Shown here in pieces: positions 10,860 to 59,929 of a DNA stretch of 64,000 nt. A model generated the notes under the pieces. That model was not told where the DNA came from and searched no databases. It was given only the letters and a program-made list of their open reading frames with translations. How positions within the stretch are numbered: position 1 is the stretch's first letter; each line of letters starts with the position of its first letter. Position numbers and translations under genes: made by a program. The stretch is from positions 172,327 to 236,326 of the forward strand of contig JAFCCL010000001.1 in assembly GCA_017610205.1 (NCBI GenBank). Direction: 5' to 3'. The DNA comes from Candidatus Iainarchaeum sp. Lineage in GTDB: Archaea; Iainarchaeota; Iainarchaeia; Iainarchaeales; GCA-2688035.

Positions 10860-12020
10860 GGGCAGCTTCTTTTTAATACACACTTCATAAAATTGAGCAA
10901 ACGTCTTTTTTCCCATCAGAAATTCTTGGTAAGGAGAATAAAGCTCGCCGTCAAACAAAACTTCCATTTCGCCACTGTTTGGCTTTAAAGCAGGCAAGCC
11001 GTAAATAGCATCCTTGACTGTTATAAATGAAGGCAAACCATCAGAGCCATCAGAAAATAGTGGCTTAGGTGAAGCCAACTTTGTTTCAGTTCTAAACCCA
11101 GTAATGAAAACTCTTCTCCTCCTCTGAGGAACACCATATTCTTCAGCCTTAAGTTTCCAAGGCTCATTAACATGATAACCAATGCCCTCAAAAGCCTCAA
11201 CTATTTCTTTAAGAGCTGCTCCTTTTCTCATAGAAAGTATGCCTGGAACATTTTCCATCACAAAAGCTTCAGGTTTTATTTTTTTGACTAAGTCAACAAA
11301 GTGAACAAAAAGGTCATTGCGTGCATCCTTTGGATTCCTCCAACCAGCATGAGAAAATCCTTGGCAGGGTGGACCTCCAACCACTACACCAATTTTGTAT
11401 TTTTTTGCTAGACTGGAAAGTCTTTCTTTATTTTTATTTTCGCGAATATCGCCTAGTATACAGAAAGCAGGATCTATTTCAGGATTGTTTTTGAGGAATG
11501 TTTCAAAAAAGCGTTTTTCTATTTCAATGGCTCCAACAACATCAAAGCCCGCTAGTTTAAATCCTTCAGAAAAACCACCTGCACCGGAAAAAAGGTCGAT
11601 TGTTTTGTCGCTATTAACATGCTTCTTGACTTCTGTTGCAACTGCTCTTGCTAAGAGTGGAGGAACAGCATTGCCTATTTGTTTAAACTGTGAAGTTTTT
11701 GCGCCATGAAAAATGAAATTGTCTTTGAATGATTGCAGTCTTGCACCTTCTCTTAGAGAAATAAGTCTGTTTTGGGAAGGGTGTATATGGCAACCGTTTC
11801 CAATTCTGTTAAAGTATGTTGAAATAGTGTAACTTGGTTTGTCATATCGTAAACGACCATAATAAGTGGTTCTGCCACCGCTTTCTCTTATTTGCTTTAA
11901 ACGTTGTGAAGGAATGTGCGGAGGGATGCTTGCCCAATTTCCCCCCGGCGGGATGTGGTTAACCATCTGCATTTCTAATTGGCTAAAGCCGGGCGTTATA
12001 TGGTTATGTAGTTTTCTCAT
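10845..12020 (-). CDS. DNA cytosine-5 methyltransferase, circularly permuted (M2.Eco31I-like)
   Basis: Motifs IX/X (REGARLQSF, QIGNAVPP) precede motif I (DLFSGAGG), IV (GPPCQGFS), VI (ENVPG) and VIII (QRRRR). Confidence 0.9.
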   Translation of the reverse strand: MRKLHNHITPGFSQLEMQMVNHIPPGGNWASIPPHIPSQRLKQIRESGGRTTYYGRLRYDKPSYTISTYFNRIGNGCHIHPSQNRLISLREGARLQSFKDNFIFHGAKTSQFKQIGNAVPPLLARAVATEVKKHVNSDKTIDLFSGAGGFSEGFKLAGFDVVGAIEIEKRFFETFLKNNPEIDPAFCILGDIRENKNKERLSSLAKKYKIGVVVGGPPCQGFSHAGWRNPKDARNDLFVHFVDLVKKIKPEAFVMENVPGILSMRKGAALKEIVEAFEGIGYHVNEPWKLKAEEYGVPQRRRRVFITGFRTETKLASPKPLFSDGSDGLPSFITVKDAIYGLPALKPNSGEMEVLFDGELYSPYQEFLMGKKTFAQFYEVCIKKKLPSYLF

Positions 12021-13971: not shown

Positions 13972-14177
13972 CTGACCACCGCTAAAATCTTTGTTTTTTC
14001 CCTGTTTACTTCTTCTTCGAGAAGTTGATTGAGTTTGGCTGCAAGCTCTGCCTTGCATTCAACTAAGTCGTCTGACTCGTCAAGCTCAACAGAAGCTCCG
14101 AGGCAGATACCTTTAGTTTCGTAGTTCCCAAGATTCACTTTCTGGGAAAGGTTCATGGAAAGGCTTCTCACATTCAT
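13968..14177 (-). CDS. Small hypothetical protein (element backbone)
   Basis: KVNLGNYET motif; ATGA overlap with the MTase start. Confidence 0.6.
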   Translation of the reverse strand: MNVRSLSMNLSQKVNLGNYETKGICLGASVELDESDDLVECKAELAAKLNQLLEEEVNREKTKILAVVR

Positions 14178-34345: not shown

Positions 34346-34458
34346 TTAAAAGAGGTATTTGTAAAATTATGTTAAAAGTTGTTTGAAAAGCAGGCGCTCA
34401 TTCCATAAACAGTATTGGGTGTTTTTTTTGGAAAGTTTATAAAAAAACGTGTTCAAAG

Positions 34459-35589
34459 ATGAACTTTGATATTGACGCAAAATTCTTGAAGCATTTTCGA
34501 AATCTTCGCCAAGTGTTTTTATATATCACAGATGAATGCAATCTTAGGTGTGTTCAGTGTATTTATAAGCCCAGCATTACATACCAACTTGGGCGCAAAG
34601 AGATTGGTTTAGAAACTGCACTTGCTCTTATATCTGATTTCAGAGAACTTGAAGCTTCTAAATTATCAATCTTGGGCGGGAAACCAACATTGTACGGGTC
34701 TTCCCAGAATTGGAAACCATTGTTGCGAGTAATTGTCAAAGCCAAAGAGTTAGGGTATGAATATGTTCGACTTGATACTAATGGCGCCACAGAAAAATTC
34801 TCTTCGCTTCTGCTCAAAAAGGACTTCAAAAAATTGGATGAAATATCATTCAGTATTGATGGCCCCACTGCTGAGATAAATGATCCAATCAGGGGGAAAG
34901 GAACATTCGATGAATGTGTATCAAATGTCAAAAAAGCAGTGCGACTGGGCTATAATGTTAACATTACTTGTTGCATCCATAGGAATCTTGTAACGAGGGG
35001 CGCATCCGGTGACTTATTAGTTGAGTGCATGATTCGATTTGCCACTTCTCTAGGCGCAAAGCGGATAAATTTTCATGTCCTTTTTGACAGAGGCACGCCA
35101 GAAGATACATGGACAACGCCTGAAGTACATATATCGCCTCAAGAATGGATGGGTATATACTCCGAGATTAACAAAAATATTGAAGCCGGCAAATATCAAA
35201 TCCCTGTTAGGATTCCCCAGTCTTTTATAGCTTGGGAAGAATTTGAAAGAAACCCGGATTATTATGGATTCTGTCCTGCCAAATTGGGTGAAAGGGTTCT
35301 GGTTCATCCTAATGGCATAATCAGAATCTGCTCTTCGTTGCTATCCACTCCATATGGTGTTGCAAGATATTCCAATGATAAAATTGTCTGGGACGACGGT
35401 TTAACTAATGAGCTTCAGGACCACCAACTTAATAAACCAACCCCTTGCACAAACCAGAGTAAAAAATATTCTGATGAAAAATTTGTTCCATTATGTTTCT
35501 CGTTTAAATCCAAGCAAGATGAATTCATTTGGAGGCAAAAACCGGGCTGGGAAAAAATAAGGACCTTTAAAGAGGGAAAAAATGAATAA
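34459..35589 (+). CDS. Radical SAM protein
   Basis: CNLRCVQC; GGKPT (variant of GGEP); DTNG; SIDG; C-terminal Cys. Confidence 0.85.
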   Translation: MNFDIDAKFLKHFRNLRQVFLYITDECNLRCVQCIYKPSITYQLGRKEIGLETALALISDFRELEASKLSILGGKPTLYGSSQNWKPLLRVIVKAKELGYEYVRLDTNGATEKFSSLLLKKDFKKLDEISFSIDGPTAEINDPIRGKGTFDECVSNVKKAVRLGYNVNITCCIHRNLVTRGASGDLLVECMIRFATSLGAKRINFHVLFDRGTPEDTWTTPEVHISPQEWMGIYSEINKNIEAGKYQIPVRIPQSFIAWEEFERNPDYYGFCPAKLGERVLVHPNGIIRICSSLLSTPYGVARYSNDKIVWDDGLTNELQDHQLNKPTPCTNQSKKYSDEKFVPLCFSFKSKQDEFIWRQKPGWEKIRTFKEGKNE

Positions 35590-46813: not shown

Positions 46814-46873
46814 AATACTTGGTTAATTGAAATAATATTTGGTTGATTAAAATAATACTTAGTTGGTTAAAAT
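46814..46873 (+). repeat. Three imperfect 20-bp tandem repeats upstream of argS
   Basis: AATACTTGGTTAATTGAAAT / AATATTTGGTTGATTAAAAT / AATACTTAGTTGGTTAAAAT. Confidence 0.7.
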
Positions 46874-48596
46874 GGCAGAATTTAAAGAATTAATTGCAGA
46901 AGTATTGGAACAGGCTCTTGACAGCAAACTAAAGAAAGACGAAATAATTGAACTTTTAGAAGTTCCTCCAATACCCAAAATGGGCGATTATGCATTTCCC
47001 TGCTTTAAGCTTGCAGAAATTCTGGGGAAAAAACCGGCAAAAATTTCATTTGAACTAGCAGAAAAAATCTTTTTACCAGATGGCATTGAAGGAATGAATC
47101 CAAACGGACCATACCTGAATTTTTTTGCAGCAAAAGACATTGTTGCCAGAGACACAATCAACAAGGTAATAAAAAATGGCAACGAATTTGGAAGACACGA
47201 TTTTGGCAAAGGCCAAAAAATCATGGTAGAATACAGTGCACCAAACTCAAACAAGCCACTGCATTTAGGGCATTTGAGAAACAACTGCATTGGAATGGCA
47301 ATTTCAAACATTTTTGAATCAGCAGGAATGAAAGTTATAAAAGCAAGCCTTGTCAACGACAGAGGAATTCACATCTGCAAAAGCATGCTTGCATACAAGC
47401 TCTTTGGAAACAACGCAACACCTGAAAGCGCAAAGGAAAAACCAGACCACTTTGTAGGAGACTATTATGTAATGTACAATCAAATGGTCAAAGAAACCCC
47501 TGATTTGGAAAAACAAGCTTACGACATGCTGCAAAAATGGGAAAAGGGAGACAAGGAAACAAAAAACCTGTGGAAAAAAATGACTTCCTGGGCAGTTAAA
47601 GGATTTAAGGAAACTTATACAGAATTTGGAAGCATATTTGACGAATGGTTTTTTGAATCACAATACTACAACAAAGCAAAACAAATCCTAAAACTTGGAG
47701 AAGAAAAGGGACTGTTCAAAAAAAACAGCGACGGAGCCCTTGTTGCAGAACTTGAAAACCAGGGACTTTCAAACAAAACAGTTTTGAGGTCGGACGGAAC
47801 CTCAATTTATATCACAAACGATTTGGCTTTAACAAAACACAAATTTGAGCACTTTAAACTTAACGAAAGCGTTTGGGTTGTGGGAAACGAACAAGACCTT
47901 TACTTCAGACAACTTTTTAAAATATTTCAACTCCTTGGATTTAAATGGGCAAAAAATTGCATGCATTTAAGCCACGGAATGGTAAACCTGCCTTCAGGAA
48001 AACTTAAAAGCAGGGAAGGCAAAGTTGTTGACGCAGACGACATAATTAAGGAATTGGAAGACCTTGCAACAGAAGAAATAAAAAAAAGAAACAAAAAGAT
48101 TAATGAAAAAGAACTTGCAGCAAGAAGCAGGGCAATTGGCCTGGCTGCAATAAAATTCCACATGCTAAAGGTCGCAGTACACAAAGACATAATGTTTGAC
48201 CCAAAGAAAAGCATTTCATTCGAAGGAGAAACAGGCCCATATATTCAATACACTTATGCCAGGGCAAAAAGCATTCTTGCAAAAGCAGGCAAAATGAAAA
48301 TAAAAAAATCCGGATTTGAAAGATTAATTGGACCGGAAGAGCAAAAACTTTTGAAACTGCTTGCAAACTACCCCGACGCAGTAAAAAAAAGCTTTAAACA
48401 ACTAAGCCCGCACATCATCTGCCAATCAATGATTGAAATTGCTGAAGCATTCAACACATTTTACCAAAAGCACAAAGTACTAAAAGCAGGAAGCGAAGAA
48501 ATCAAAATCGAAAGAATTTCCCTAGTACAAGCAACAGCCCAAGTGCTAAAAAACGGTTTGGAATTGCTTGACATTGAAGCAATTGAAAAGATGTGA
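46872..48596 (+). CDS. argS: Arginyl-tRNA synthetase
   Basis: GDYAFPCF, GPYLNF, PNSNKPLHLGHLRN, KLKSREG, GETGPYIQYTYAR. Confidence 0.97.
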   Translation: MAEFKELIAEVLEQALDSKLKKDEIIELLEVPPIPKMGDYAFPCFKLAEILGKKPAKISFELAEKIFLPDGIEGMNPNGPYLNFFAAKDIVARDTINKVIKNGNEFGRHDFGKGQKIMVEYSAPNSNKPLHLGHLRNNCIGMAISNIFESAGMKVIKASLVNDRGIHICKSMLAYKLFGNNATPESAKEKPDHFVGDYYVMYNQMVKETPDLEKQAYDMLQKWEKGDKETKNLWKKMTSWAVKGFKETYTEFGSIFDEWFFESQYYNKAKQILKLGEEKGLFKKNSDGALVAELENQGLSNKTVLRSDGTSIYITNDLALTKHKFEHFKLNESVWVVGNEQDLYFRQLFKIFQLLGFKWAKNCMHLSHGMVNLPSGKLKSREGKVVDADDIIKELEDLATEEIKKRNKKINEKELAARSRAIGLAAIKFHMLKVAVHKDIMFDPKKSISFEGETGPYIQYTYARAKSILAKAGKMKIKKSGFERLIGPEEQKLLKLLANYPDAVKKSFKQLSPHIICQSMIEIAEAFNTFYQKHKVLKAGSEEIKIERISLVQATAQVLKNGLELLDIEAIEKM

Positions 48597-48845
48597 CTAA
48601 GGCAACTTCATACCGCGCTTTGCAGCAATCTTTTTCATATTGACATAATCCGCCTGCGTAAGTCTTGTATCATATACAGAATCAGAAACCTTTTTCTGAA
48701 TGCGCCTCAAGATATCCTTTTCTCCAAGGGTAAAAGTTGCCTCAGGCGATTCCCTCAGCAAATCAAGGCCTTTGGAAATTTTAAGCTTTAGCCTTTGACC
48801 ACTCGGCTTTCTCCTAACAACCCTTTTAATCGGCTTTCTGACCAT
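48597..48845 (-). CDS. Small basic hypothetical protein
   Basis: MVRKPIKRVVRRKPSG... Confidence 0.55.
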   Translation of the reverse strand: MVRKPIKRVVRRKPSGQRLKLKISKGLDLLRESPEATFTLGEKDILRRIQKKVSDSVYDTRLTQADYVNMKKIAAKRGMKLP

Positions 48846-48974
48846 AATATAAAAACGCACTCCGGCAATTTAATTCTTTCTATTCGCGGATTCGAGCATT
48901 ATTCCATAAAAATAGCCGGCTTTAAATCTATTATCTTTTTGTTTTAAATGGGGTACTAAACTTTGTTTCTTAAA

Positions 48975-49784
48975 TTAAACCCAACAGTTTTTGTCCCTTA
49001 TCTTTGAAGTTCTTCTTACAACACAGCCTCCGCCACATTTTTCAAAAAAAAGGCAAGAAGTACATTGTTTGCATATTTTTGTAATTATTTTAAATTCAGC
49101 CCATATTTCAAAAAAATCGTCTTGGAAAGAAAATTTTGTTTTGCTGTATCTGCAAACAGACAAGTTTGCATTGGAATCAATACAAAAAGAAAGTTTTCCT
49201 GCAGGGCATATTCCAGAAAAATTTTCGTTTATAAGAGCCATCAAAGGCAAATCACTTAAAAGGGTTATCTGCCTTTTTTTTGCTTCGCAAGCAAGTTTTT
49301 TTAGCATAAAGGCATAAGTTGATTTTTGTATTTTTTTTGTTGGATTTGAAAAAACATTGACTATTTTTATACTATTTTCTTCCATTATTTTAAGAGCGGT
49401 TGGAAAAGAAACAAACAAATTAAGATCAACAAGGGCTATCGGCATTTTAATATCTTTAAAAAAAAGGGCTATTTTTTTTATATTTTTAAGCATTTTTTTA
49501 TTAAAAATAAGTCTTAACGCTGAAATTTTACAGGTTTTGAGTTGTAAAAGCATTTTTGGATTAAAACCTGTTACTGTTATTGCAATACTTTTATTTAGCA
49601 AAAGTTTAACAAGTTCTTTTGCAACTAAAATTTTTTTTGAGGAAAGACGGCCAAGAAAGATATTAATGCCAAAGGCTGTGCTTTCATGCACTATTTTGGC
49701 AATTTTTTTGCAACAAACTTTTTTAGAGCTACTTAAATCAATTTCACAAATTACAGGTTTTTTTAGCTGATCTTCATAAAACAT
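48975..49784 (-). CDS. SPASM-domain protein with degenerate radical SAM core
   Basis: No CxxxCxxC; C-terminal CPAGK...VC...CKQCTSC....CGGGC...NC. Confidence 0.75.
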   Translation of the reverse strand: MFYEDQLKKPVICEIDLSSSKKVCCKKIAKIVHESTAFGINIFLGRLSSKKILVAKELVKLLLNKSIAITVTGFNPKMLLQLKTCKISALRLIFNKKMLKNIKKIALFFKDIKMPIALVDLNLFVSFPTALKIMEENSIKIVNVFSNPTKKIQKSTYAFMLKKLACEAKKRQITLLSDLPLMALINENFSGICPAGKLSFCIDSNANLSVCRYSKTKFSFQDDFFEIWAEFKIITKICKQCTSCLFFEKCGGGCVVRRTSKIRDKNCWV

Positions 49785-50725
49785 AGTGGGTCCCGTTCCA
49801 AAAAATTTTTATATTTTGCAAAAGCATGAGCTCTACAGCCTCTGCAAATGTTAAGAATTTTACATTTTTTGCAGGTGGTATTTAGTTTTGATTTGTCACG
49901 CAAAGTCTTAAACAGATCTGAATTATTCCAAGCAGTTACCAAGTTTTGTTCCATAAGATTTGAGTCTGAAATTCTTAGTTTTGCACAAGGAAAAAATTTT
50001 CCATGTACATCAATAAGTGCACCAAATTTTCCTGCAATACACCCAAAATTGTTTAATGTGGCAATTTCTGGTTCAAAATCCTCAGCACCTATAAGATTAA
50101 ATAGGGGGTCTTCACAAGAGATTAACTCATTTGAAAGTGCTTTGTTATAAATTCTTTGAAGAATTTGCTTAAACTCTTTTGAAGTAAAAAGATTTTTTTG
50201 GAGTGATTTGGTGTTATTTGGAGGAATCATTCTTTGAAATCCGATTGGAATTTGGTACTGTTGTGAAAATTCTATTAATTTATTAATCTGATTTTTGTTG
50301 TTATTGCCTAAAGTACAAAGGACAGAAACTTTCTGTTTATTTTCTTTCAAAAAAAGAACGCTTTCTATAATCTTTTTTGTCAATGCTCCAGTTGTACTGT
50401 CTAAACTAACTTGAACAAAATTAAATCTTTTAATCTGCTTTAGATTTTCTTTAGCTGTAAGACCGTTTGTAAGAAGACCAGTATTAAAGTGGTGGTTCGA
50501 AACACTTTTTGAAATTTCTTGAAATTTACTATGTAATGTTGGTTCCCCTCCAGTAATAATTAAATATTTTGTTCCAATTTTGTCTGCTTCATGCAAAATT
50601 TTATTTATAAAAGAAACCGGCATTTCATCGTTGCTTTTATTTTTTCCAAGATAGCAGTACTCACAATTTAAATTACATTTTTCTGTAACTTCCAATTCCA
50701 ATATATTTAAATTAAACAAGTACAA
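49763..50725 (-). CDS. Radical SAM/SPASM maturase
   Basis: CNLNCEYC, TGGEP, TNG, VSLD; GCIAG...PC...CKKC....CRGCRA...DPLC. Confidence 0.92.
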   Translation of the reverse strand: MYLFNLNILELEVTEKCNLNCEYCYLGKNKSNDEMPVSFINKILHEADKIGTKYLIITGGEPTLHSKFQEISKSVSNHHFNTGLLTNGLTAKENLKQIKRFNFVQVSLDSTTGALTKKIIESVLFLKENKQKVSVLCTLGNNNKNQINKLIEFSQQYQIPIGFQRMIPPNNTKSLQKNLFTSKEFKQILQRIYNKALSNELISCEDPLFNLIGAEDFEPEIATLNNFGCIAGKFGALIDVHGKFFPCAKLRISDSNLMEQNLVTAWNNSDLFKTLRDKSKLNTTCKKCKILNICRGCRAHAFAKYKNFLERDPLCFMKIS

Positions 50726-51011
50726 TCAGCCCATTGTTGTATACCTGCAAAAGAAACTTGTTAACCGCCAGTGAAATCTCTTTTTTTGAAAAGTTAGAAT
50801 ATTTTTTGCATAAAATACCAATTATTTCTTTTACCGATTTTTTGCCATCACAGTGCCTCCAAACTATAGCTTCCTTTTCTGAAATAAAAAACATTTTTGG
50901 TTCGGTGGTTTTACTGCCTTTGCCAATCATCAAAAAAATACCGTCTTTTTCTTCTCTGCAAAATACAGTCTTCTTTTTTTGCGGCTGACTTTTTTCATTC
51001 AATAATACCAT
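50712..51011 (-). CDS. PqqD-like RiPP recognition element (RRE)
   Basis: AIVWRHCDGKKSVKEII..LCKKY...VNKFL..V...GLI. Confidence 0.85.
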   Translation of the reverse strand: MVLLNEKSQPQKKKTVFCREEKDGIFLMIGKGSKTTEPKMFFISEKEAIVWRHCDGKKSVKEIIGILCKKYSNFSKKEISLAVNKFLLQVYNNGLIVLV

Positions 51012-51294
51012 GTTTTTTCAACTCTAATAAAAAATTATTTGTTTCCGAAATAACTTTTTCTTTTGGAATATTTTCATCTTCAATTTCATTAAAAAGATTG
51101 TTTGCAAGTTCATTCACTGTGTGTTTTCCATCGCACAAAAAAAATACTTTTGATTCAAAATTTCCCAGTTTAAAGAAAGAATGGTATTTTATTTCTTTTT
51201 TGGCATAACGTGGAAATATTACCGTGTTTCCAAGTTTTGTTTTTCTGAATTTTACTAATTTGCATTTTATCGGTTTCCATGTATTAGTAAACAT
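50995..51294 (-). CDS. PqqD-like RiPP recognition element (RRE)
   Basis: KVFFLCDGKHTVNELA...ETNNFLLELKKHGII; likely ATG 51294. Confidence 0.85.
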   Translation of the reverse strand: MFTNTWKPIKCKLVKFRKTKLGNTVIFPRYAKKEIKYHSFFKLGNFESKVFFLCDGKHTVNELANNLFNEIEDENIPKEKVISETNNFLLELKKHGIIE

Positions 51295-51334
51295 AATAAA
51301 TATTGCTATACAAAAATATATTAAGGTTTTACTA
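51295..51334. promoter_or_regulatory. 40-bp divergent promoter region shared by the RRE operon and leuS
   Basis: AT-rich gap with TATA-like AATATATTAA between ATG 51294 (-) and GTG 51335 (+). Confidence 0.5.
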
Positions 51335-54205
51335 GTGCAGCTTAATTTTGACAAGATTACGCAAAAATGGCAAAATGAATGGACAAAAAAAGGGCTTGGA
51401 AACGCAGAATCCATAAAAGGCAAAAAAAAATTCTACTTAATTTTTGCTTATCCAGGAGTGTCGGGCTTTTTGCATGTTGGCCATATGCGCGGTTATACAT
51501 ATGCAGATATAATAACCAGATTTAAAAGAATGCAAGGATACAATGTTCTTTTTCCCGCAGGATTTCATGCAAGCGGATTGCCGGCGATTGCTTATTCTGT
51601 AAAAATAAAGAAAAAAGACCCTGCTACAATCAATCAACTTAAAGAGTATGGTTTGAATGATAAACAAATACAAGAACTTGAAGATCCAAAAAACACTGTT
51701 GAATTTTTTAAGCGAATTTATGTTGAAGACTTTTGGAAAAAATTCGGATTCCTTATTGATTATAGAAGATTAATCAGCACTATCCAACCAGAGTATAACA
51801 AATTTATGGAATGGCAGTTTTCAAAACTTAAAGAGGCTAATTTACTTGTACAAAAACCACACTTTGCCCCCTGTTGCCCAAATTGTGGCCCTGTTGCAAT
51901 AGACACTGCAGAAACAGATATAGCCCAGGGTGGAACAGCTGAAACAATAAATTATACAATTATAAAATTTAAGCTCGGAAAAAGAATTTTGCCTGCAGCA
52001 ACATTAAGACCAGAAACCGTTTACGGGGTAATAAACATGTGGCTTAATCCAGAAACAGAACTCGTTGTTGTCAAATATAATAATGAAGAATGGATTCTTT
52101 GTAAAGAAGCTGCTGAAAAGCTAAAATTCCAAAAGCATAACTTTGAAATCACTTCTGAAAAAATACCTGCCAAAAGCCTTATTGGAAAAAAATGCATTAA
52201 TCCAGTAAACAACCAAGAAGTATTGATTCTTCCAGCAGGATTTGTTGAATGCGGAATAGGCACAGGGGTTGTAATGAGTGTTCCAAGCCATGCACCATAT
52301 GATTGGATTGCCTTAAATGACTTACAGCAAAATCCTCAAAAAATTGAAGAGTATAAAATTTCAAAAGATAAACTTTTGAAACTAAAGCCAGTATCACTTA
52401 TTAAAACACCTGATTTTGGAGAACACCCAGCTATAGAATTATGCAAAAGTTTAGGCTTAAAAAGCCAAAATGAGACTGAAAAGCTTGAAGAAGCTACCCA
52501 GATAGTGTACCGAAAAGAATTTCATTCTGGAAAGCTAAATTCACTTTATGGAAAAAATGAGGGTGTAAAAGTATCTGATGCAAAAGATATTCTAATAAAA
52601 GAATTTGAACAAAAAAATGTCGCTGAAGAAATGTACGGTTTTTCAGAAAAAGTAGTGTGCAGATGTGGAACCGAAGTCATTGTCAAACTTATTCCAAATC
52701 AATGGTTTATAAAATATTCTGATAACGAACTTACTTCAAAAAGTAAAGAACAAGCAAAAAAAATGTCAATATGGCCAGATCAATACAAAAAAGAGCTTCC
52801 AGGAATTCTCGACTGGTTTAATGATAGAGCCTGTGTAAGACAGGGGAGCTGGCTTGGAACAAAATTTCCTTTTGACAGACAATGGGTAATTGAGCCAATA
52901 TCTGATTCTACGCTTTATCCTTTAATTTATATTTTAAGCAAATATATAACTGAAGGTAAAATAAATTCAGAAAATTTATGTAATGAATTCTTTGACTATA
53001 TTTTTTTAAGCGAAGGAACGTTAGATGCTGTTGCAAAAAAAACAGGGCTTGATAAAAAATTAATACGCCAAGTAAAAAACGATTTTGAATATTGGTATCC
53101 TCTTGATTTGAACTTAGGCGGTAAGGAACACAAAACAGTACATTTTCCTGTTTTCTTAATGAATCACGTAGCGGTTCTAAAAACAAAAGATTTACCTAAA
53201 GGAATTTTTGTAAATTGGTGGGTAGTTGGCGAAAATGGAAAAATCTCTAAATCAAAAGGAGGGGCTGTTTCATTGCATAATCTAGCAAAAGTATTTTCGG
53301 TTGATGCCTTAAGACTTTACTACTGCCACATTGGAAGTGCACACATTGACATACAATTTGATGAAAAGATTGCACAAAAATATAAAAGTATCCTGCAAAA
53401 AGATTATTTATTAATTGAAAAAGTTGTAAAAAGCAAAAAATCCGTCAAAAGAAAAATAATAGACGACTGGCTTGTTGAAACACTTAACCAAAAAATGCAA
53501 AAGGCAATAAATTCTATAGATGGATTAAATTTGAAGAAATTTTCACAAGAAATTTATTACAGCATACCTGAAGACCTTAACTGGTATCTGAAAAGAGATG
53601 GTTTAAACAAAAAACTTTTGCTTTCTTTTTTAGAACAATGGACAAAGCTTATGATGCCAATAACACCACATTTAGCCGAAGAAATTTGGCATACCTTATT
53701 AAAAAAGAAAACACTTGTTTCTACAGAGCAATGGAAAAAAATCAACAAAAAAACTAAACAAGAAGTCATACAAACAGAAATTTTAATTAAAACAATTTTG
53801 AGTGATCTTGAAAATATTAAACAACTTGCAAAGATTAACAAGCCTAAAAAAATAACGTTTTTTGTTGCACCAGCCTGGAAAAATGAGGCCATAAAAACAG
53901 TGGTAGCTGCCTGCAAGGATCAACCAGACTTTAAAAAAGCAATGGCTGGCTGGATGAAAAATCCAAAACTAAAAAAACATGCTGACAAATCACCAAAAAT
54001 GGTTAAAAAAATCATTTCGGATTTTTGGAAAATGAAACAATTTAAGCCAATAGCAGAATTTGAAATTCTAAATAAAGAGAAAAAATTCTTTGAAAAATTA
54101 TATAATACACAGATAGAAGTAACCACTGCTTCAAAAACAAAAAAAGAATTGCAAACTAAAGCTTCTTCGGCCATGCCTATGAAACCAGCAATTTATATCG
54201 AATGA
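51335..54205 (+). CDS. leuS: Leucyl-tRNA synthetase, archaeal type
   Basis: FAYPGVSGFLHVGH, ATLRPET and GTGVVMSVPSHAPYD (CP1 editing), SDSTLY, GKEH, KISKS, C-terminal PMKPAIYIE; start probably GTG 51335. Confidence 0.96.
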   Translation: MQLNFDKITQKWQNEWTKKGLGNAESIKGKKKFYLIFAYPGVSGFLHVGHMRGYTYADIITRFKRMQGYNVLFPAGFHASGLPAIAYSVKIKKKDPATINQLKEYGLNDKQIQELEDPKNTVEFFKRIYVEDFWKKFGFLIDYRRLISTIQPEYNKFMEWQFSKLKEANLLVQKPHFAPCCPNCGPVAIDTAETDIAQGGTAETINYTIIKFKLGKRILPAATLRPETVYGVINMWLNPETELVVVKYNNEEWILCKEAAEKLKFQKHNFEITSEKIPAKSLIGKKCINPVNNQEVLILPAGFVECGIGTGVVMSVPSHAPYDWIALNDLQQNPQKIEEYKISKDKLLKLKPVSLIKTPDFGEHPAIELCKSLGLKSQNETEKLEEATQIVYRKEFHSGKLNSLYGKNEGVKVSDAKDILIKEFEQKNVAEEMYGFSEKVVCRCGTEVIVKLIPNQWFIKYSDNELTSKSKEQAKKMSIWPDQYKKELPGILDWFNDRACVRQGSWLGTKFPFDRQWVIEPISDSTLYPLIYILSKYITEGKINSENLCNEFFDYIFLSEGTLDAVAKKTGLDKKLIRQVKNDFEYWYPLDLNLGGKEHKTVHFPVFLMNHVAVLKTKDLPKGIFVNWWVVGENGKISKSKGGAVSLHNLAKVFSVDALRLYYCHIGSAHIDIQFDEKIAQKYKSILQKDYLLIEKVVKSKKSVKRKIIDDWLVETLNQKMQKAINSIDGLNLKKFSQEIYYSIPEDLNWYLKRDGLNKKLLLSFLEQWTKLMMPITPHLAEEIWHTLLKKKTLVSTEQWKKINKKTKQEVIQTEILIKTILSDLENIKQLAKINKPKKITFFVAPAWKNEAIKTVVAACKDQPDFKKAMAGWMKNPKLKKHADKSPKMVKKIISDFWKMKQFKPIAEFEILNKEKKFFEKLYNTQIEVTTASKTKKELQTKASSAMPMKPAIYIE

Positions 54206-55233
54206 ATTATAAAATTCCAAAACGCAATCTATTAAAAAAAATTAAAGGAATCATACTAATGGAACCAATATTTGAATTTCCTACAGAGTGTCATTTTATA
54301 CCATGCAATAAAACAACAACAAAAATTGAGCAATTTCCAAACTTGAGCAGTTACCGGCAAATGACATTAAAAGAAATAGACCTATTTTTAAAAAAACTCA
54401 AGGGCCAAGGAATAGGAAAACTTTTTCTTACAGGCCCAGAACCCATGCAACGAAATGACTTAGAAAAAATTATTGACCTGGCTTATAAAAAAGAGATTAA
54501 AGTGGATTTAAGAACAACCGGATTAGAGCTTACAACAAAAAGACTTGAAAATATCAAAGGCAAAGTAAATGCAGTAATATTTGATTTATTTGGCGGTAAA
54601 AAAAACACAAACAAATATTTTGGAAGCGGTTCACATGAAAAAATACTTGCAAATATGAACGCTTGCAGTAGCTTGGGATTAAATACTATTGTTTGTTTAA
54701 ATATTTCAAACGAAAATGTTGGCCAAATAGAAAAAATAATTAAAAAAATCCCCAAAAGAATTCGGGGCATTGTATTTTCTTATTTTGTCGCTTATAAAAA
54801 AGATGTTGTTGAATTGCAGTTGAGCCAAAAAAAATTCTTGAAAGAATTTAAAAAAATAAAAAAAGTTGCTGAAAACAAAGGATTCAAAGTTATATCAAGT
54901 TGCAAAATAGTGTTTGACAAAAATTGTCCAAAAAATGTTTACAGACTTTGCTCTGCTGGAAAATTTAAACTATCTGTTCTACCTAATGGCGATGTTGTAC
55001 CTTGTGAGCTCCTTAAATTAAGTCCTAAACTGATTGCAGGGAATGTACTTAACGAAAGTATTGAAAATATTTGGAAAAACAAAACTTTAAAAATGTTTAG
55101 GGCAATTTCACAAGAAAGCCTTTCAGGAAAATGCAGTAACTGCAAATTATTTAATTTTTGTCCAAGCTGTCGTGCGATTCCATACAATCTTAAAAATCAA
55201 CTTTATGGAAGCATTGAATTTTGCAAACTTTAA
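54202..55233 (+). CDS. Radical SAM-like/SPASM protein lacking CxxxCxxC
   Basis: TGPEP, RTTG; CSAGK...PNGDVVPC...CSNC....CPSCRA...C; ATGA overlap with the leuS stop. Confidence 0.8.
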   Translation: MNYKIPKRNLLKKIKGIILMEPIFEFPTECHFIPCNKTTTKIEQFPNLSSYRQMTLKEIDLFLKKLKGQGIGKLFLTGPEPMQRNDLEKIIDLAYKKEIKVDLRTTGLELTTKRLENIKGKVNAVIFDLFGGKKNTNKYFGSGSHEKILANMNACSSLGLNTIVCLNISNENVGQIEKIIKKIPKRIRGIVFSYFVAYKKDVVELQLSQKKFLKEFKKIKKVAENKGFKVISSCKIVFDKNCPKNVYRLCSAGKFKLSVLPNGDVVPCELLKLSPKLIAGNVLNESIENIWKNKTLKMFRAISQESLSGKCSNCKLFNFCPSCRAIPYNLKNQLYGSIEFCKL

Positions 55234-56210
55234 GGCGTTGCCAAGCACAGTGGGTCTTGTGCTGAAAAAATACCAGTCCTTCCAAAAGCAGCTGCCCTGC
55301 AACCACCGTAGCATATACTGTAAAATTTGCAAGAAATACATTCTTTGCACTGTGTTTTTTTTCTAAAATCATTTGCTTTTTTGCTATTCCATGCTTTAAA
55401 AAGGCTATTATTGCAAATATTGCCTAAAACAACAGGGTAATAGGCACATGGTTTTATGTCACCAACAGAACTAATATAACCCTGTGTTTCAAAGCAAGGC
55501 ATTGTTTTTTTTTGCCAGGATGATTTTACTGCAAATTCAAAGCAAAAAGGCAAAAACTTTATTTCAATTTTATTTTCAAGTGCTTGTTTTTTCTTTAAAA
55601 GAAACAAATTAACTTCTTTTAACTGTTTTTTGCTTATTACTAAATTTTCTGTTGCACTACCAGTAGTAATAACTGGTCTTACACGAAAGGAGTCCACTTT
55701 AAGTTTGAGCAGTAAGTCAAAAATTTTTGGAACTTGCTTTATGTTTTGGTTTGTTAAAGTTGTTCTAACCCATATCTGAAAGCCAAGTTTTTTTGCTAAC
55801 TTTATAGATTTTATTGTTTTATCAAAAGCGCCCTTTTTTCCCCTAAAACAGTCATGCTCGTTAGCAGTTGCTGCATCAATGCTTGTGTGAATTATATAAA
55901 CGCCATTTTTTTGCAATTTTTGAGCAATTTTTTTATTAAAAATAGTCATGTTGGAGTAGAGTATGTTAATTATTTCAAAATCAGTTAAAGAAGAAGCTAA
56001 TTCATAAATAAACTTATCTCTTAACAATGGTTCTCCACCTGTAAGAATGGCTGTTTTGGTTTTCATTTTTTTCAAATCTTCCAAAACAGGTTGAAAATCA
56101 TTTAGGGTAATTTCTTTTTGTTTTGCTTTTCCAGCTTCTGTAAAACAATGGTGGCACTTTAGATTGCAAGCAGTAGTGGTTTGTATTCTGATTGACTTTA
56201 TATTATACAT
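55230..56210 (-). CDS. Radical SAM/SPASM maturase
   Basis: CNLKCHHC, TGGEP, SID; PC...PC...CISC....CYGGCRA...DPLC. Confidence 0.92.
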   Translation of the reverse strand: MYNIKSIRIQTTTACNLKCHHCFTEAGKAKQKEITLNDFQPVLEDLKKMKTKTAILTGGEPLLRDKFIYELASSLTDFEIINILYSNMTIFNKKIAQKLQKNGVYIIHTSIDAATANEHDCFRGKKGAFDKTIKSIKLAKKLGFQIWVRTTLTNQNIKQVPKIFDLLLKLKVDSFRVRPVITTGSATENLVISKKQLKEVNLFLLKKKQALENKIEIKFLPFCFEFAVKSSWQKKTMPCFETQGYISSVGDIKPCAYYPVVLGNICNNSLFKAWNSKKANDFRKKTQCKECISCKFYSICYGGCRAAAFGRTGIFSAQDPLCLATP

Positions 56211-57193
56211 TCTTTAGTACCCCCAAACTTTTTGCAGTAAGGGTCTTGTTCAAAGTAGGATCCTTTAACCAGATAACTCATCGCTCTACAACCGCCATTG
56301 CAAGTTTCTTTCAAAACACATTTTGCACAAGCTCCTTTTAGATTATCAGAATTTTTTATTTCTTTAAAAAAATCATTTTTCCAAATTTTTGTTAACGGTT
56401 CTTTTTTGATATTGCCAAGCACAAGAGGAAAAACAGGGCAAGGCCAAACATCTCCATTATAACAGACATGAAAACTATATCCAATAGGGCAACCTTTAGC
56501 AAGATTTTTACTGTTTGGTTTATTTGCAAGTTCCGGCATTTCTATATTAATACGCAGGTGTCTTGTTTTTTTTGAAGCAAGAAAACTTAAAAACTTTTCA
56601 AAATCATTTTTTTCTAAAAGAAAATTTTCCAAATTTTTAGCTCGCCCTAGTGGCATCATTGGAAAAAATATAACAAGATTAACTCCAAGAACATCAAGCA
56701 AGTCAACAAATTTATCCATTAAACCGATATTTTTCCTAGAAAGAGTAGTAAGCACAGCAACTGGCAGGCCCTGTTTTACACACTTTTTTATTCCTTTTAT
56801 TGCCAAATCAAATGAACCCTTGCCCCTAATAGAGTCATTATATTCTTTAGGACCTTCTAAAGACACTTTAATAGCATATATCCCAGCTTTTTTAAGTTCA
56901 ACTATTATTTTAGTATTAAGCAATAGACCATTTGTAGTAACGCCCCAAACAATATTTTGTGTTTTAACTTGATTGCCAATCTTAATTAATGTAGCTGGAA
57001 AAAGTAATGGTTCGCCTCCAGTTATTTCCAAAACTCTAACCTTATTTTCAATACAATAATTAAGAATTTTATCAATATACTTTTCCTGCATAACTTCGTT
57101 ATCAGATTTTGCACTTACAGCACAGTGACTACAGGAAAGATTACATGACTCAGTCAAACTAAACGAAAGAGAAATTGGAGCTGAAAAAATCAT
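56198..57193 (-). CDS. Radical SAM/SPASM maturase
   Basis: CNLSCSHC, TGGEP, TTNG, VSLEG; GCPIG...PC...CAKC....CNGGCRA...DPYC. Confidence 0.92.
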   Translation of the reverse strand: MIFSAPISLSFSLTESCNLSCSHCAVSAKSDNEVMQEKYIDKILNYCIENKVRVLEITGGEPLLFPATLIKIGNQVKTQNIVWGVTTNGLLLNTKIIVELKKAGIYAIKVSLEGPKEYNDSIRGKGSFDLAIKGIKKCVKQGLPVAVLTTLSRKNIGLMDKFVDLLDVLGVNLVIFFPMMPLGRAKNLENFLLEKNDFEKFLSFLASKKTRHLRINIEMPELANKPNSKNLAKGCPIGYSFHVCYNGDVWPCPVFPLVLGNIKKEPLTKIWKNDFFKEIKNSDNLKGACAKCVLKETCNGGCRAMSYLVKGSYFEQDPYCKKFGGTKECII

Positions 57194-57204
57194 TTTAATC
57201 AATT

Positions 57205-57282
57205 TTACAAACAGTGTGCTATATTAAGCATACATCCCGCAAACTTTATTTCTTTTAGTTCTAATTTAAAATTGCTTTTCAT
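57205..57282 (-). CDS. Putative RiPP precursor peptide MKSNFKLELKEIKFAGCMLNIAHCL (25 aa)
   Basis: GGAGG RBS at 57290-57294, ATG 57282, TAA 57205; 11 nt upstream of the first maturase ATG; absent from the ORF track because it is below the size cutoff. Confidence 0.75.
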   Translation of the reverse strand: MKSNFKLELKEIKFAGCMLNIAHCL

Positions 57283-57431
57283 AGAAAAACCTCCAATTTA
57301 TTGTAATAAAATATGTATATAATAGATTCTTTTAATTTAATAAACTTTCTGTTGTTTCACCAAATAATGAATCTGATTAGAAAAAGGGCTTTAAAAGATA
57401 GGGTAGAAGAGAAAAAAAAGAAAAAGGAAAA

Positions 57432-57448
57432 AGGGCTGAAAAAGCCCT
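57432..57448 (-). terminator. Hairpin followed by T-rich tract on the minus strand
   Basis: AGGGCT-gaaaa-AGCCCT with long A runs 5' on the plus strand. Confidence 0.5.
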
Positions 57449-57516
57449 CTTTTGATTTAATTATTGTTCTTAAACTGAGATTGTTACAACGCCACAACCA
57501 AAGGCAGACAAATTTT

Positions 57517-58122
57517 TTACTTATTAACTGCATTCCAAATAAGCTTTTTGAAGGGAATTCTTCCATAAACCAGCTCCCTTCCGCGAAAGTGCTTCAAAAC
57601 GTTTTCTTTTGGATAACCCATTTCAACCGCAAGCTTTGCGCTTAGGATATCTGCAAAAAGCTCTTCTGCCTGTTCGTAGGAAATTTTTTTTGCATCGGCA
57701 AACTTTCCCAAATTTTTCTTTGGAAAATGCGCATACTCATGTGCCAGAGTAAAAATTCCTTCAACTGTCAGCTTGCTTCCGTCAAACACATGCTCTGCAG
57801 GCATATTAATGTAATTGCTTTTTACAATAAAACGCTGCTTGCCCTTTTGAAAAATCTTAATTGCATTAACCTGCTCGCCTTTTACAACAGACGCAAAAAC
57901 CCTGCCGTGTTTGAAGAAAATCTTTTCCTTAAGTGTTTTCCTTGGATAAAAATAAATCGGCATGTTTACAACATTTTGCCTCATTCTTGCATAAAGGGCT
58001 TTTTCAACATTGGACTTTGCCTTTTTTTCAAGCTTGACAAGAGTATTAGAAGCAAGGTCCCTAAAATTTTCCAAAGCCCTTGTTCGCTCCTTGTCAAGAA
58101 TCTTTTTTCTAAAAAAACCCAT
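57517..58122 (-). CDS. Basic protein with HExxH zinc-metallopeptidase motif
   Basis: TLAHEYAH...EELFAD. Confidence 0.65.
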   Translation of the reverse strand: MGFFRKKILDKERTRALENFRDLASNTLVKLEKKAKSNVEKALYARMRQNVVNMPIYFYPRKTLKEKIFFKHGRVFASVVKGEQVNAIKIFQKGKQRFIVKSNYINMPAEHVFDGSKLTVEGIFTLAHEYAHFPKKNLGKFADAKKISYEQAEELFADILSAKLAVEMGYPKENVLKHFRGRELVYGRIPFKKLIWNAVNK

Positions 58123-58162: not shown

Positions 58163-59929
58163 TTATTCCAAAACAGCCTTTATTCTTCTCACACCAGCAC
58201 TGACACTTTCTTCCTTCTTTATTTTAAATTTTCCAATCTCACCAGTATTTTTTACATGCGGACCTGCACAAACCTCTTTTGAAACATCTCCAATAGTGTA
58301 AACTGAAACCTTTTCAGGAGCATACTTTGCGTCAAAAAATGCAAGAGCGCCCTTTTTTTTGGCTTGGTCAAGCGACATTTCTTTCCTTTGAACAGAAATC
58401 TTTGCATCAATTGCATTGTTTACAATCTTTTCAACTTCCTCAAGCTGTTCCTTTGAAACCTTTTCAGGGTTTGAAAAATCAAACCTTAATCTTTCAGGAG
58501 TAATGTTGCTTCCCTTTTGCTGCACATGTTCTCCAAGAACTTTTCGCAATGCAGCATGAAGCAAGTGGGTTGCAGTATGCATTCTTAATGCAATTTCAGA
58601 ATGGTCTGCAAGACCTGACTTAAACTTTCCGGTAGTTGACTTTCTTGAAAGCGCCTGGTGCTTTTCAAACTCTTTTTGAAACGCTTGCTTGTCAACTTCA
58701 AGGCCTTTTTCTTTTGCCATTTCAACAGTCATCTCCAAAGGAAAGCCATAGCTTTGATATAAAAGAAACGCGTCATTTGCGGAAATTTTGCCATGCTTTT
58801 TGAAAATCTTTTTAAACATTTTTACTCCCTGGCCCAAAACCTTTGCAAACTTTTCTTCCTCTGCCTCAATTTCTTTAAAAATTGCAACAGAATTTTTCTT
58901 AAGCTCAGGCCATTCATCACCATAAATTTCAACAACCTTTTTTGCAATCTCGCGGCAAAAGCTTCCTTCAATTCCCAAAAGCCTTCCATGCCTTACTGCT
59001 CGCCTAATCAGCCTTCGCAGAACATAACCTTGCTCTATATTACTTGGCACAATTCCTTTTCCCTCACTTAAAACAAATACAACAGCGCGAATGTGATCTG
59101 CAATAATGTGGGCACTTTTTTCATTAAATTCCCTTGCAAGCTGCTTTATCTTTTCCATTAGTGGCAAAAACATTTCTGTTTCGTAAACATTTCTCTTGCC
59201 CTGCAGCATTGCAACAGTTCTTTCAACACCCATTCCTGTGTCAACATTCATTTGCTTTAATTTTTCAAATTTGCCTTCAGCAGTTTTGTTATACTGCATA
59301 AAGACATCATTCCAAATTTCAAAAAACTTTCCACAATTGCAACCAGGTTTGCATTCCTTGCCACACGCTTTCTTGCCTGTGTCGTAAAATATTTCAGTGT
59401 CAGGACCACAAGGACCTGTCTTTCCAGCTGGGCCCCACCAATTGTCTTTTTTTTCAAAAAAGAAAATTTTCTCAGAAGAAATTCCCAAAGACAGCCAAAC
59501 ATTGGCTGATTCTTCATCCTTTGGAGCATCTTTGTCACCTGCAAAGCAGGTTACACTAATCTTTTCTTTATTCAATCCAAGCCATTTTTTGCTTGTTAAA
59601 AATTCATAACTCCATTCAATTGCCTTTTTTTTGAAGTAATCTCCAAGCGACCAGTTTCCCAGCATAAAAAAGAAAGTTAGGTGCGATTGGTCTCCTACTT
59701 CGTCAATATCCCCAGTTCTAATGCATTTTTGGTTGTTTGCAAGCCTTTTTCCTTCAGGATGCTGCTGTCCAAGCAAATATGGAACAAGAGGGTGCATTCC
59801 TGCAGCAGTAAACAAAACAGTTGGATCATGCTCTGGAATAAGCGACGCACTCGGAATAATTGCATGCCCATTTTCCTTAAAGAAATCTAAATAGGCCTTT
59901 GCAAGCCTTTTTGCAGTCCACATGGACAA
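58163..59929 (-). CDS. alaS: Alanyl-tRNA synthetase (short form, no C-Ala domain)
   Basis: DPTVLFTAAGMHPL, QKCIRTGD, GPCGPDTE, DTGMGVER, HTATHLL, CAGPHV, GVRRIKA. Confidence 0.97.
   Translation of the reverse strand: MSMWTAKRLAKAYLDFFKENGHAIIPSASLIPEHDPTVLFTAAGMHPLVPYLLGQQHPEGKRLANNQKCIRTGDIDEVGDQSHLTFFFMLGNWSLGDYFKKKAIEWSYEFLTSKKWLGLNKEKISVTCFAGDKDAPKDEESANVWLSLGISSEKIFFFEKKDNWWGPAGKTGPCGPDTEIFYDTGKKACGKECKPGCNCGKFFEIWNDVFMQYNKTAEGKFEKLKQMNVDTGMGVERTVAMLQGKRNVYETEMFLPLMEKIKQLAREFNEKSAHIIADHIRAVVFVLSEGKGIVPSNIEQGYVLRRLIRRAVRHGRLLGIEGSFCREIAKKVVEIYGDEWPELKKNSVAIFKEIEAEEEKFAKVLGQGVKMFKKIFKKHGKISANDAFLLYQSYGFPLEMTVEMAKEKGLEVDKQAFQKEFEKHQALSRKSTTGKFKSGLADHSEIALRMHTATHLLHAALRKVLGEHVQQKGSNITPERLRFDFSNPEKVSKEQLEEVEKIVNNAIDAKISVQRKEMSLDQAKKKGALAFFDAKYAPEKVSVYTIGDVSKEVCAGPHVKNTGEIGKFKIKKEESVSAGVRRIKAVLE

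Follow-up and report, generated by a model that had tools for sequence, protein, structure and literature searches.

We analysed a 64,000-nucleotide stretch from the genome of Candidatus Iainarchaeum sp. (assembly GCA_017610205.1, contig JAFCCL010000001.1), which we call the window; coordinates are positions in it. Its gene for leucyl-tRNA synthetase (leuS, encoding LeuRS) lies within a foreign island. The other genes of the island encode radical S-adenosylmethionine (rSAM) proteins with SPASM domains, PqqD-like proteins, and a very short peptide, and they resemble a gene cluster for a peptide that is synthesized by ribosomes and modified post-translationally (RiPP). At this locus we see the resident leuS DISPLACEMENT in place: a xenologous gene displacement in situ, from the bacterial to the archaeal type of LeuRS. 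We put the probability at roughly 60% that leuS came in as part of this RiPP-like island, that the incoming block displaced the resident leuS in situ, and that the imported LeuRS is now the housekeeping enzyme.

Displacement of leuS between argS and alaS

The host genome (1.37 Mb, 92% complete) encodes ribosomal protein L31e. Among 14 control genomes, the L31e family matched only the 4 archaeal ones, so the host is archaeal, as had been claimed from the window alone. (The assembly has no match to the small-subunit rRNA model, RF01959.) The window lies within a 236-kb contig. We compared this genome (G000) to 40 relatives from its order, including 22 other members of its family and 6 congeners. 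The nearest congener, G004, was the reference for comparing the locus and its flanks:

46,863-48,596 (+): argS, native left flank (85% amino acid identity to G004)
48,597-48,860 (-): fast-evolving gene of 87 amino acids (aa), native left flank (55% identical to G004; GC 0.41)
48,861-57,516: foreign low-GC island, standing where the congeners have a 143-aa gene and the bacterial-type leuS
51,335-54,205 (+): archaeal-type leuS, 956 aa from the GTG at 51,335 (TIGR00395, NF008957)
57,517-58,122 (-): gene for a 201-aa HExxH protein, native right flank (87% amino acid identity to G004)
58,163-59,929 (-): alaS, native right flank (86% amino acid identity to G004)

Three lines of evidence show that the resident gene was displaced. 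First, the two kinds of leuS occupy the same chromosomal position. The congeners share the order argS, leuS, 201-aa gene, alaS; the bacterial-type leuS adjoins argS in all six and lies between argS and alaS in 5 of the 5 in which alaS was found. In G004, the full order is argS(+), 87-aa gene(-), 143-aa gene(-), leuS(-), 209-aa gene(-), and alaS(-), with 4 nt between the 209-aa gene and leuS. The window is 81-83% identical to G004 at the nucleotide level, both through argS and, from 57,512 onward, across the 201-aa gene and alaS; the 87-aa gene aligns weakly. Across all six congener loci, blastn alignments end at about 48,596/48,778 and restart at 57,512. The sole alignment between those ends is with G002, in which the two kinds of leuS match over 67 nt (75% identity). 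Nowhere in this genome is there a counterpart of the congeners' 143-aa gene.

Second, the two genes come from different family lineages. The island LeuRS scores 818.4 bits against the archaeal-type model TIGR00395 (cut-off 648.5; model positions 2-938) and 967.2 bits against NF008957 (cut-off 677). It is just 28-29% identical to the bacterial-type LeuRS of the congeners. Archaeal-type leuS was found in none of the other 22 genomes of the family and in none of the 6 congeners. The bacterial type is present in 19 of the 22 and in 6 of 6 congeners; the remaining three, whose genomes are 61-78% complete, have neither.

Third, this genome is nested among relatives that kept the resident gene. In a tree of ArgRS and AlaRS, it falls inside the genus, as the sister to G004 and G002 (support 0.999). 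Also, identities among the bacterial LeuRS proteins of the congeners (68-89%) follow those of ArgRS and AlaRS. Together with the nested position, this implies that the bacterial gene is ancestral to the genus and that the change is derived here.

Across the order, the type of LeuRS is patchy. Among the 41 genomes, 8 have the archaeal type, 29 have the bacterial type, and none have both; the two types do not co-occur in four further archaeal-type genomes either. This implies repeated replacement of leuS. (In a wider scan of 196 genomes of the order, 46 matched the island LeuRS at E <= 1e-150.)

The island's leuS is also the sole copy. No other gene of the genome reaches the cut-off of TIGR00395, nothing in the genome reaches the cut-off of the bacterial-type model TIGR00396, and a tblastn search of the genome with the bacterial LeuRS of G004 gave nothing above 28% identity. 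(The other class-I matches are ValRS, an IleRS-like gene, and a MetRS-like gene.) With no other LeuRS gene found, all charging of tRNA-Leu in the cell must fall to the island LeuRS.

It looks like an ordinary enzyme. Throughout the alignment of its clade, HVGH and KISKS do not vary, and its branch is of unremarkable length. Of 158 highly conserved columns, 2 carry private substitutions (I158M and T233I), compared to 0-6 in 46 relatives. T233I (numbered in the protein of 956 aa) replaces a threonine that is at least 96% conserved, right after the stretch TLRPETVYGV; we take the TLRPET stretch to be part of the editing domain. Neither the curated models, the motifs, the private substitutions, nor the branch length give any sign that this LeuRS has a share in the chemistry of the island.

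The island stands out by composition. GC content falls from about 0.38-0.41 to about 0.30 near position 48,900 and climbs back near 57,600. All of the island's genes, including leuS, have GC of 0.256-0.323, which places them at the 0-3.4th percentile of 610 long open reading frames (ORFs). GC at third codon positions (GC3) is 0.19-0.24, or 0.34 in one of the PqqD-like genes. With GC of 0.323 (3.3rd percentile) and GC3 of 0.240, leuS is indistinguishable from the rSAM genes. For argS, the 201-aa gene, and alaS, GC is at the 30th-52nd percentile. The island is one continuous tract of only 7 in the genome with GC below 0.33, a level that just 2.1% of 1,311 3-kb windows fall under. The original prediction, which was made from the sequence of the window, had called leuS embedded rather than merely adjacent. 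The low GC common to leuS and to the rSAM genes on both sides bears this out: they form one continuous foreign block.

Several side observations concern the flanks. We considered the 87-aa gene as cargo of the island, given its 55% identity to G004, and rejected it, as its GC is 0.41 and the congeners are equally divergent from each other (47% between G004 and G006). The 201-aa protein has an HExxH motif (LAHEYAH) and a weak zincin-like Pfam match below the cut-off. Its gene is tied to leuS both in the bacterial-type congeners and in G033, which has the archaeal type (L043:6939-7640). The alaS of the window encodes only 588 aa.

Genes of the RiPP-like island

The region from 48,975 to 57,294 holds nine protein-coding genes and one micro-ORF. 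On the left, a minus-strand operon (51,294 to 48,975), whose genes overlap or abut at their ends, encodes two PqqD-like proteins of 99 aa each, an rSAM/SPASM protein of 320 aa, and a degenerate paralogue of 269 aa. In the middle, leuS is followed on the plus strand by a 343-aa pseudo-rSAM/SPASM gene. On the right, another minus-strand operon (57,282 to 55,230) contains the 25-aa ORF and rSAM/SPASM genes of 334 and 326 aa. Besides leuS, the features are:

48,975-49,784 (-): degenerate rSAM/SPASM paralogue, 269 aa (hhalign; GC 0.289, 0.5th percentile)
49,763-50,725 (-): canonical rSAM/SPASM gene, 320 aa (Pfam Radical_SAM 66.1 bits, SPASM 24.9 bits)
50,712-51,011 (-): stand-alone PqqD-like gene, 99 aa, resembling a RiPP recognition element (RRE) (PF05402, 29.1 bits; cut-off 23.4)
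50,995-51,294 (-): second PqqD-like gene, 99 aa from the ATG at 51,294, in an open frame that extends to 51,423 (PF05402, 17.6 bits, below cut-off)
54,202-55,233 (+): pseudo-rSAM/SPASM gene, 343 aa, or 324 aa from the ATG at 54,259 (Pfam Radical_SAM 53 bits, SPASM 48.4 bits)
55,230-56,210 (-): canonical rSAM/SPASM gene, 326 aa (Pfam; CxxxCxxC)
56,198-57,202 (-): canonical rSAM/SPASM gene, 334 aa; the public gene call starts at the ATG at 57,193 (Pfam; CxxxCxxC)
57,205-57,282 (-): 25-aa micro-ORF, MKSNFKLELKEIKFAGCMLNIAHCL, candidate precursor peptide (ORF, with a GGAGG site at 57,290-57,294)
57,428-57,452 (-): terminator-like hairpin (10-pair stem and a T run) that separates the micro-ORF operon from the native 201-aa gene

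The five rSAM/SPASM-type genes, two PqqD-like genes, and micro-ORF that had been described around leuS are present, with three of the rSAM genes intact and two degenerate. The 40-bp divergent gap between leuS and the left operon is real if leuS starts at the GTG at 51,335 (as in the public gene call, giving 956 aa) and the operon at the ATG at 51,294. As for the reported ATGA overlap of leuS with the downstream SPASM gene, the overlap exists (54,202-54,205), but the public gene call starts the downstream gene at the ATG at 54,259, which leaves a 53-nt gap. In a promoter and terminator scan, the sites across the region, terminator-like ones included, were not above the shuffled expectation; the scan models bacterial promoters and is unsuited to an archaeon.

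Three of the five rSAM-type genes (49,763-50,725, 55,230-56,210, and 56,198-57,202, all on the minus strand) have the CxxxCxxC motif and exceed the Pfam cut-offs for both Radical_SAM and SPASM. Over all five, four pass for Radical_SAM and four for SPASM (PF13186); the fifth, at 48,975-49,784(-), shows its SPASM domain by hhalign only. This fifth gene has no Pfam match for either domain. It aligns to an rSAM/SPASM profile only from column 49 on (hhalign probability 98.3%, E 2.2e-14), and it has neither the cysteine triad of the cluster loop nor GGEP. In the gene at 54,202-55,233(+), which passes both Pfam cut-offs, C-x4-C replaces CxxxCxxC and GPEP replaces GGEP. Both proteins keep the SPASM cysteines. 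We predict that the 343-aa and 269-aa proteins cannot be active rSAM enzymes as they stand, because of the C-x4-C in the one and the missing cluster loop and GGEP in the other.

An rSAM/SPASM profile that we built for this study recovers all five genes of the island, two rSAM genes of a relative (G021, discussed below), and a sixth rSAM gene of the window that lies outside the island (34,387-35,586(+), about 376-400 aa; E 2.7e-32). The sixth has only weak NCBIfam matches.

By sequence, the solved structures nearest to the 334-aa rSAM protein are SkfB (E 1.4e-16) and CteB (E 7.5e-14), two maturases that form thioethers in peptides, followed by PqqE and anSME. It has no relative above 39% identity among 1.84 billion representative proteins, and none above 33% in the 40 relatives. 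The 343-aa pseudo-rSAM protein has no relative above 28% identity among 5.8 billion proteins.

PqqD-family proteins bind peptides. The PqqD-like protein encoded at 50,712-51,011(-) exceeds the Pfam cut-off (29.1 bits versus 23.4) and the one at 50,995-51,294(-) falls below it (17.6 bits, E 0.005). In the ESM Atlas, 28 of the 30 named clusters nearest to the second protein are PqqD (score 0.92). The two are 26% identical over about 100 aa, and the second is a paralogue of the first. (AlphaFold2 models of both, made without alignments, had predicted local confidence (pLDDT) of 54-57, too low for a fold search.) The only PqqD matches in the genome are these two in the left operon, and 5 of the genome's roughly 11 SPASM matches are within the island. 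Because 5 of about 11 SPASM matches and both PqqD matches of a 1.37-Mb genome fall within 8.6 kb, their clustering is not due to chance.

The right-operon rSAM proteins begin directly at the cysteine motif and have no fused RRE. A complex prediction for the 334-aa rSAM protein with the PqqD-like protein from across leuS (50,712-51,011) gave weak support for contact: the score was 0.58, compared to 0.01 for the best of 3 controls, the partner's pLDDT was at least 84, and the runs agreed in at least 88% of contacts. Of 80 solved complexes, 58 reached the pass mark, as did 2 of 110 mismatched pairs. Passes scoring at or below 0.60 included only 7 of the 80 solved complexes but both of the passing mismatches. 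The pass may echo likeness to solved rSAM proteins with a fused RRE.

The micro-ORF encodes 25 aa, with two cysteines within the last nine residues, after Ala-Gly, and it ends in leucine. Its stop codon lies 12 nt ahead of the ATG of the 334-aa enzyme, or 2 nt ahead of that gene's upstream TTG. A perfect GGAGG ribosome-binding site lies 7 nt before the ATG of the micro-ORF, and the enzyme gene behind it has no GGAGG. There are 1,376 GGAGG sites in 2.74 million strand-bases of the genome, so one is expected in a 12-nt window about 0.6% of the time; at most 89 of 1,305 long ORFs have such a site. We read the peptide, by analogy to known systems, as a putative leader-core precursor. The likeliest chemistry would be cross-linking by the rSAM/SPASM enzymes, with thioether cross-links from the two cysteines. 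The rSAM/SPASM genes, the PqqD-like genes, and the short cysteine-bearing ORF support the earlier description of this gene set as RiPP-like.

Neither protease nor exporter genes lie within the island. The native 201-aa protein has an HExxH motif, its gene immediately precedes the micro-ORF operon, and it might act as a peptidase.

Origin of the island and the role of its LeuRS

We propose that a foreign block of about 8.6 kb was acquired after this lineage split from its nearest congeners. The block would have carried an archaeal-type leuS amid RiPP-like genes and would have displaced the bacterial-type leuS along with its 143-aa neighbour. The imported LeuRS would then be the cell's only LeuRS, and an ordinary one; as its gene would be essential, the island should be hard to lose. 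In the RiPP-like part, the rSAM/SPASM enzymes would modify the 25-aa peptide while the stand-alone PqqD proteins hold its leader. From what is known of these families, the two degenerate paralogues may act as non-catalytic partners.

We infer a single transfer event, with the linkage between leuS and the rSAM genes reflecting co-transfer rather than a shared biochemical pathway. The two flanks of leuS look like one system: none of the three active rSAM proteins carries a fused RRE, and for two of them the only PqqD genes are those across leuS. Landing exactly at the site of the old leuS would be hard by random insertion, which suggests recombination with a donor of similar gene order. Consistent with such a donor, G033, from a different family of the order, has an archaeal-type leuS whose immediate upstream neighbour is homologous to the 201-aa gene (51% identity).

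The island's LeuRS falls in a small clade. Among 5.8 billion proteins, the best relatives are 60, 58, 56, 56, 56, 52, and 51% identical and the rest are at or below 49%. Two members of the clade, G167 (56%) and G056 (52%), are from other families of the same order, and the flanks of their leuS genes have no homologue of any island protein. The archaeal type was matched in 1 of 4 sampled members of the family of G167 and in 1 of 9 of the family of G056, and the one member of each that was examined for the bacterial type carries it.

Since the original prediction raised the issue of whether leuS has PqqD and SPASM neighbours elsewhere, we searched for such neighbourhoods and found none. Among 80 archaeal leuS loci from species-representative genomes (1.12 Mb; 5,924 ORFs), none had an rSAM/SPASM gene of this kind nearby; the one weak match (36.9 bits, L054) is a different kind of rSAM protein without a SPASM domain. 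Similarly, none of the 4 loci examined at the level of the order had rSAM, SPASM, or PqqD neighbours. The pairing of leuS with rSAM genes is unusual, and neither test nor comparison here supports a functional link between them.

Elsewhere in the family, the corresponding locus has a second leuS-rSAM adjacency, unrelated to the first. In G021, from another genus (L039:3585-12294), the stretch from argS to leuS contains genes for two rSAM/SPASM proteins, of 339 and 396 aa, and for a double Lrp/AsnC-like regulator of 328 aa; the leuS there is of the bacterial type, with an insertion (1012 aa). We considered whether this pair belongs to the same system and rejected that, as the proteins are just 22-24% identical to those of the island. 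By our rough estimate, about 0.6 leuS-rSAM adjacencies would arise by chance among some 20 genomes.

Several observations weigh against the acquisition of the island and leuS together. No donor was found: the closest LeuRS is 60% identical, the closest relative of the 334-aa rSAM protein is 39% identical, and a search of metagenome contigs with the LeuRS gave 71 pattern matches, none of them a relative. So, the linkage of leuS and rSAM genes in a donor is unobserved. Because the genome has 6 other low-GC tracts, shared composition is not proof of a single event. The borders of the island have no flanking repeats (only AT-rich low-complexity pairs), tRNA gene, or integrase or recombinase gene. 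No sequencing run containing the island was found, nor any RNA run with it, and the completeness of 92% leaves room for a second leuS on unassembled DNA. Other points concern the RiPP-like part. None of the five rSAM proteins reaches the cut-off of an NCBIfam equivalog family, while many rSAM/SPASM families match below their cut-offs; the best scores are to AhbD/NirJ2-like families, at 166-176 bits versus a cut-off of 500. The micro-ORF has no paralogue in the genome, no homologue was found, and by our estimate this base composition would yield a 25-codon open frame in about 13% of cases. Finally, the island has no protease or transporter gene.

An alternative to simple co-transfer is self-resistance, in which the modified peptide inhibits LeuRS and the island LeuRS is resistant; the sensitive native LeuRS would then have become redundant or harmful and been lost. 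In a closely related form, the island would be a mobile RiPP cluster that targets LeuRS, an archaeal, rSAM-made counterpart of tiarin, whose embedded LeuRS provided immunity, displaced the resident, and took over housekeeping. In a wider form, capturing an essential gene would be the island's way to become impossible to lose. The setting is suggestive: a synthetase gene was co-acquired with the cluster and lies inside it, co-directional with a SPASM gene at a spacing of at most 53 nt. The peptide ends in leucine, and the private substitution T233I is beside the threonine-rich TLRPET stretch. There is also a precedent in the account of tiarins (10.64898/2025.12.02.691738).

We nevertheless consider self-resistance unlikely, and the mobile LeuRS-targeting cluster equally so. 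The original prediction suggested that this leuS might be a self-resistance copy, but our searches for a second leuS (with TIGR00395, TIGR00396, and tblastn) found none, so the usual signature of self-resistance, a sensitive housekeeping copy plus a resistant copy in the cluster, is missing. This LeuRS lacks unusual changes at conserved sites (2 of 158, within the range of its relatives) and is not on a long branch. Its clade members in G167 and G056 have no rSAM neighbours and have only that type of LeuRS, and the same goes for the 80 archaeal loci as regards rSAM/SPASM neighbours. The type of LeuRS is patchy across the order without any cluster, so swaps occur for other reasons. And a C-terminal leucine is expected by chance about 1 in 10 times.

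The island might instead reflect separate events at a hotspot: a swap of leuS and one or two insertions of rSAM genes, all independent, in a variable region between argS and leuS. Adjacency would then be meaningless. This stretch does vary among the congeners, where the 87-aa and 143-aa genes are present or absent, and in G021 it holds two unrelated rSAM/SPASM genes and the Lrp-like regulator. Foreign DNA in this genome may also be low in GC generally. Against this, the low-GC tract is continuous, and leuS falls in the same extreme percentile as both of its flanks. The PqqD genes are on one side of leuS and the candidate precursor and the RRE-less rSAM genes are on the other, and the complex prediction lends weak support to contact between the two sides. 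It would also take at least three independent landings, all in the same 8.6 kb out of 1.37 Mb, which is improbable. Overall, we consider this explanation unlikely.

The original prediction had stated what would speak against it: a sole, vertically inherited leuS, with homologous rSAM/RRE clusters elsewhere that never include leuS, meaning chance insertion on both sides. The leuS is indeed the sole copy, but it was not inherited vertically, given that 6 of 6 congeners have the bacterial type at the same locus. No homologous rSAM/RRE clusters were found, which leaves no basis for saying that such clusters "never include leuS". The position of the PqqD genes to the left of leuS and of the candidate precursor to its right disfavours chance insertion on both sides.

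It is also possible that the gene set is not a RiPP system, and that its rSAM/SPASM proteins act on a protein, a cofactor, or a lipid, with the micro-ORF not a substrate at all. Archaeal rSAM enzymes that modify lipids exist, and the 334-aa protein has a weak PDB match to GDGT/MAS synthase. The best NCBIfam scores, far below the cut-off, are to rSAM enzymes of heme pathways (AhbD/NirJ2), and the absence of a protease or exporter would fit as well. The archaeal SPASM enzyme CrpC, as described in PMC13692751, acts on a full protein, CrpA. On the other hand, the island has two PqqD-family proteins, the nearest solved structures are peptide maturases, and a cysteine-bearing ORF of 25 aa with a Shine-Dalgarno site lies directly upstream of an rSAM gene. 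These make a non-RiPP role improbable in our view.

Last, a chimera of assembly or binning, in which the island comes from another organism and was wrongly joined, is very improbable: the composition differs from the rest of the genome and no sequencing runs were found that would cover the junctions, but native syntenic flanks lie on both sides within a 236-kb contig, the genome without the island would have no LeuRS, and it would take two false joins that cut out precisely the leuS region.

Other features of the genome were also noted. A VirB4-like ATPase of 742 aa is encoded at 21,745-23,973(+), about 25 kb from the island. It scores 308 bits against the CD1110 family (cut-off 325) and has weaker CedB-like matches, a hint of a nearby element for conjugation or DNA import. 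At 9,411-14,058 lies a type IIS restriction-modification set (Alw26I/Eco31I/Esp3I family) with cytosine-5 and adenine methyltransferases; its endonuclease, at 403.6 bits, narrowly misses the cut-off of 443.85. The genome's largest low-GC tract (G000:C3:80001-94000, 14 kb, minimum GC 0.298) is near another SPASM gene (C3:77677-77871).

Comparison with known systems

We found no literature that joins leucyl-tRNA synthetase, radical SAM, and SPASM. At the level of titles and the openings of abstracts, we also found no described RiPP cluster of this layout in the DPANN literature. If the proposed co-acquisition is true, this locus is a clean, datable case of in-place replacement within one genus: an essential gene of translation gave way to a distant equivalent, which brought accessory genes along. 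An island that resembles secondary metabolism would carry the host's only copy of an essential gene, which should lock the island into the genome. It would also offer a small test system from tiny archaea: a 25-aa peptide, two PqqD proteins, and three rSAM/SPASM enzymes that are predicted to be active. If the LeuRS were an immunity gene, then RiPPs that target aminoacyl-tRNA synthetases would extend to archaea and to rSAM chemistry.

The closest counterparts for the gene set are the sacti- and ranthipeptide clusters (SkfB, CteB, and PapB, with their RREs). They share with the island rSAM enzymes with CxxxCxxC and SPASM domains, PqqD partners, and a short cysteine-bearing ORF upstream of the maturase. 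Unlike them, the island reaches no curated family cut-off, has three true and two catalytically degenerate paralogues, and has free-standing RREs in a different operon than the precursor, with no protease or exporter. It is also found in an archaeon with a small genome, and with an essential synthetase gene in its middle.

Among archaeal SPASM enzymes, CrpC of Methanococcus voltae is described as forming thioether (ranthionine) cross-links on the cysteine-rich, cluster-encoded protein CrpA (PMC13692751). We liken the island's enzymes to CrpC by that description, not by sequence, and the island's candidate substrate is a peptide of 25 aa with two cysteines rather than a protein.

Synthetase genes for self-immunity are known from other biosynthetic clusters, such as the IleRS of mupirocin and the LeuRS AgnB2 of agrocin 84. 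For the tiarin (tfx-like) RiPPs, synthetase genes are described as enriched near the operons, and an ArgRS variant encoded in the cluster gives immunity (10.64898/2025.12.02.691738). The island is similar: its synthetase gene, too, is part of a RiPP-like cluster, with which it probably moved. It differs from tiarin clusters, as that source describes them, in that no separate housekeeping copy was found, an rSAM/SPASM set takes the place of the tfx set, and there is no sign of divergence at the target site and no conserved co-occurrence.

Xenologous gene displacement in situ and horizontal transfer of synthetase genes are both known concepts. Here too, an essential gene was swapped at the same position for a distant equivalent (TIGR00395 for TIGR00396). 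This case departs from the usual one in that about 5.8 kb of accessory rSAM and PqqD genes lie on both sides of the gene, and in that the change was from the bacterial to the archaeal type within an archaeon. Overall, the theme of rSAM/SPASM enzymes with RREs in RiPP clusters is known, and what is new in the gene set is the mix of three active and two degenerate paralogues, the split operons, and the small archaeal host. As to the event, displacement in situ is known, and what is new is that the essential gene arrived wrapped in accessory genes.

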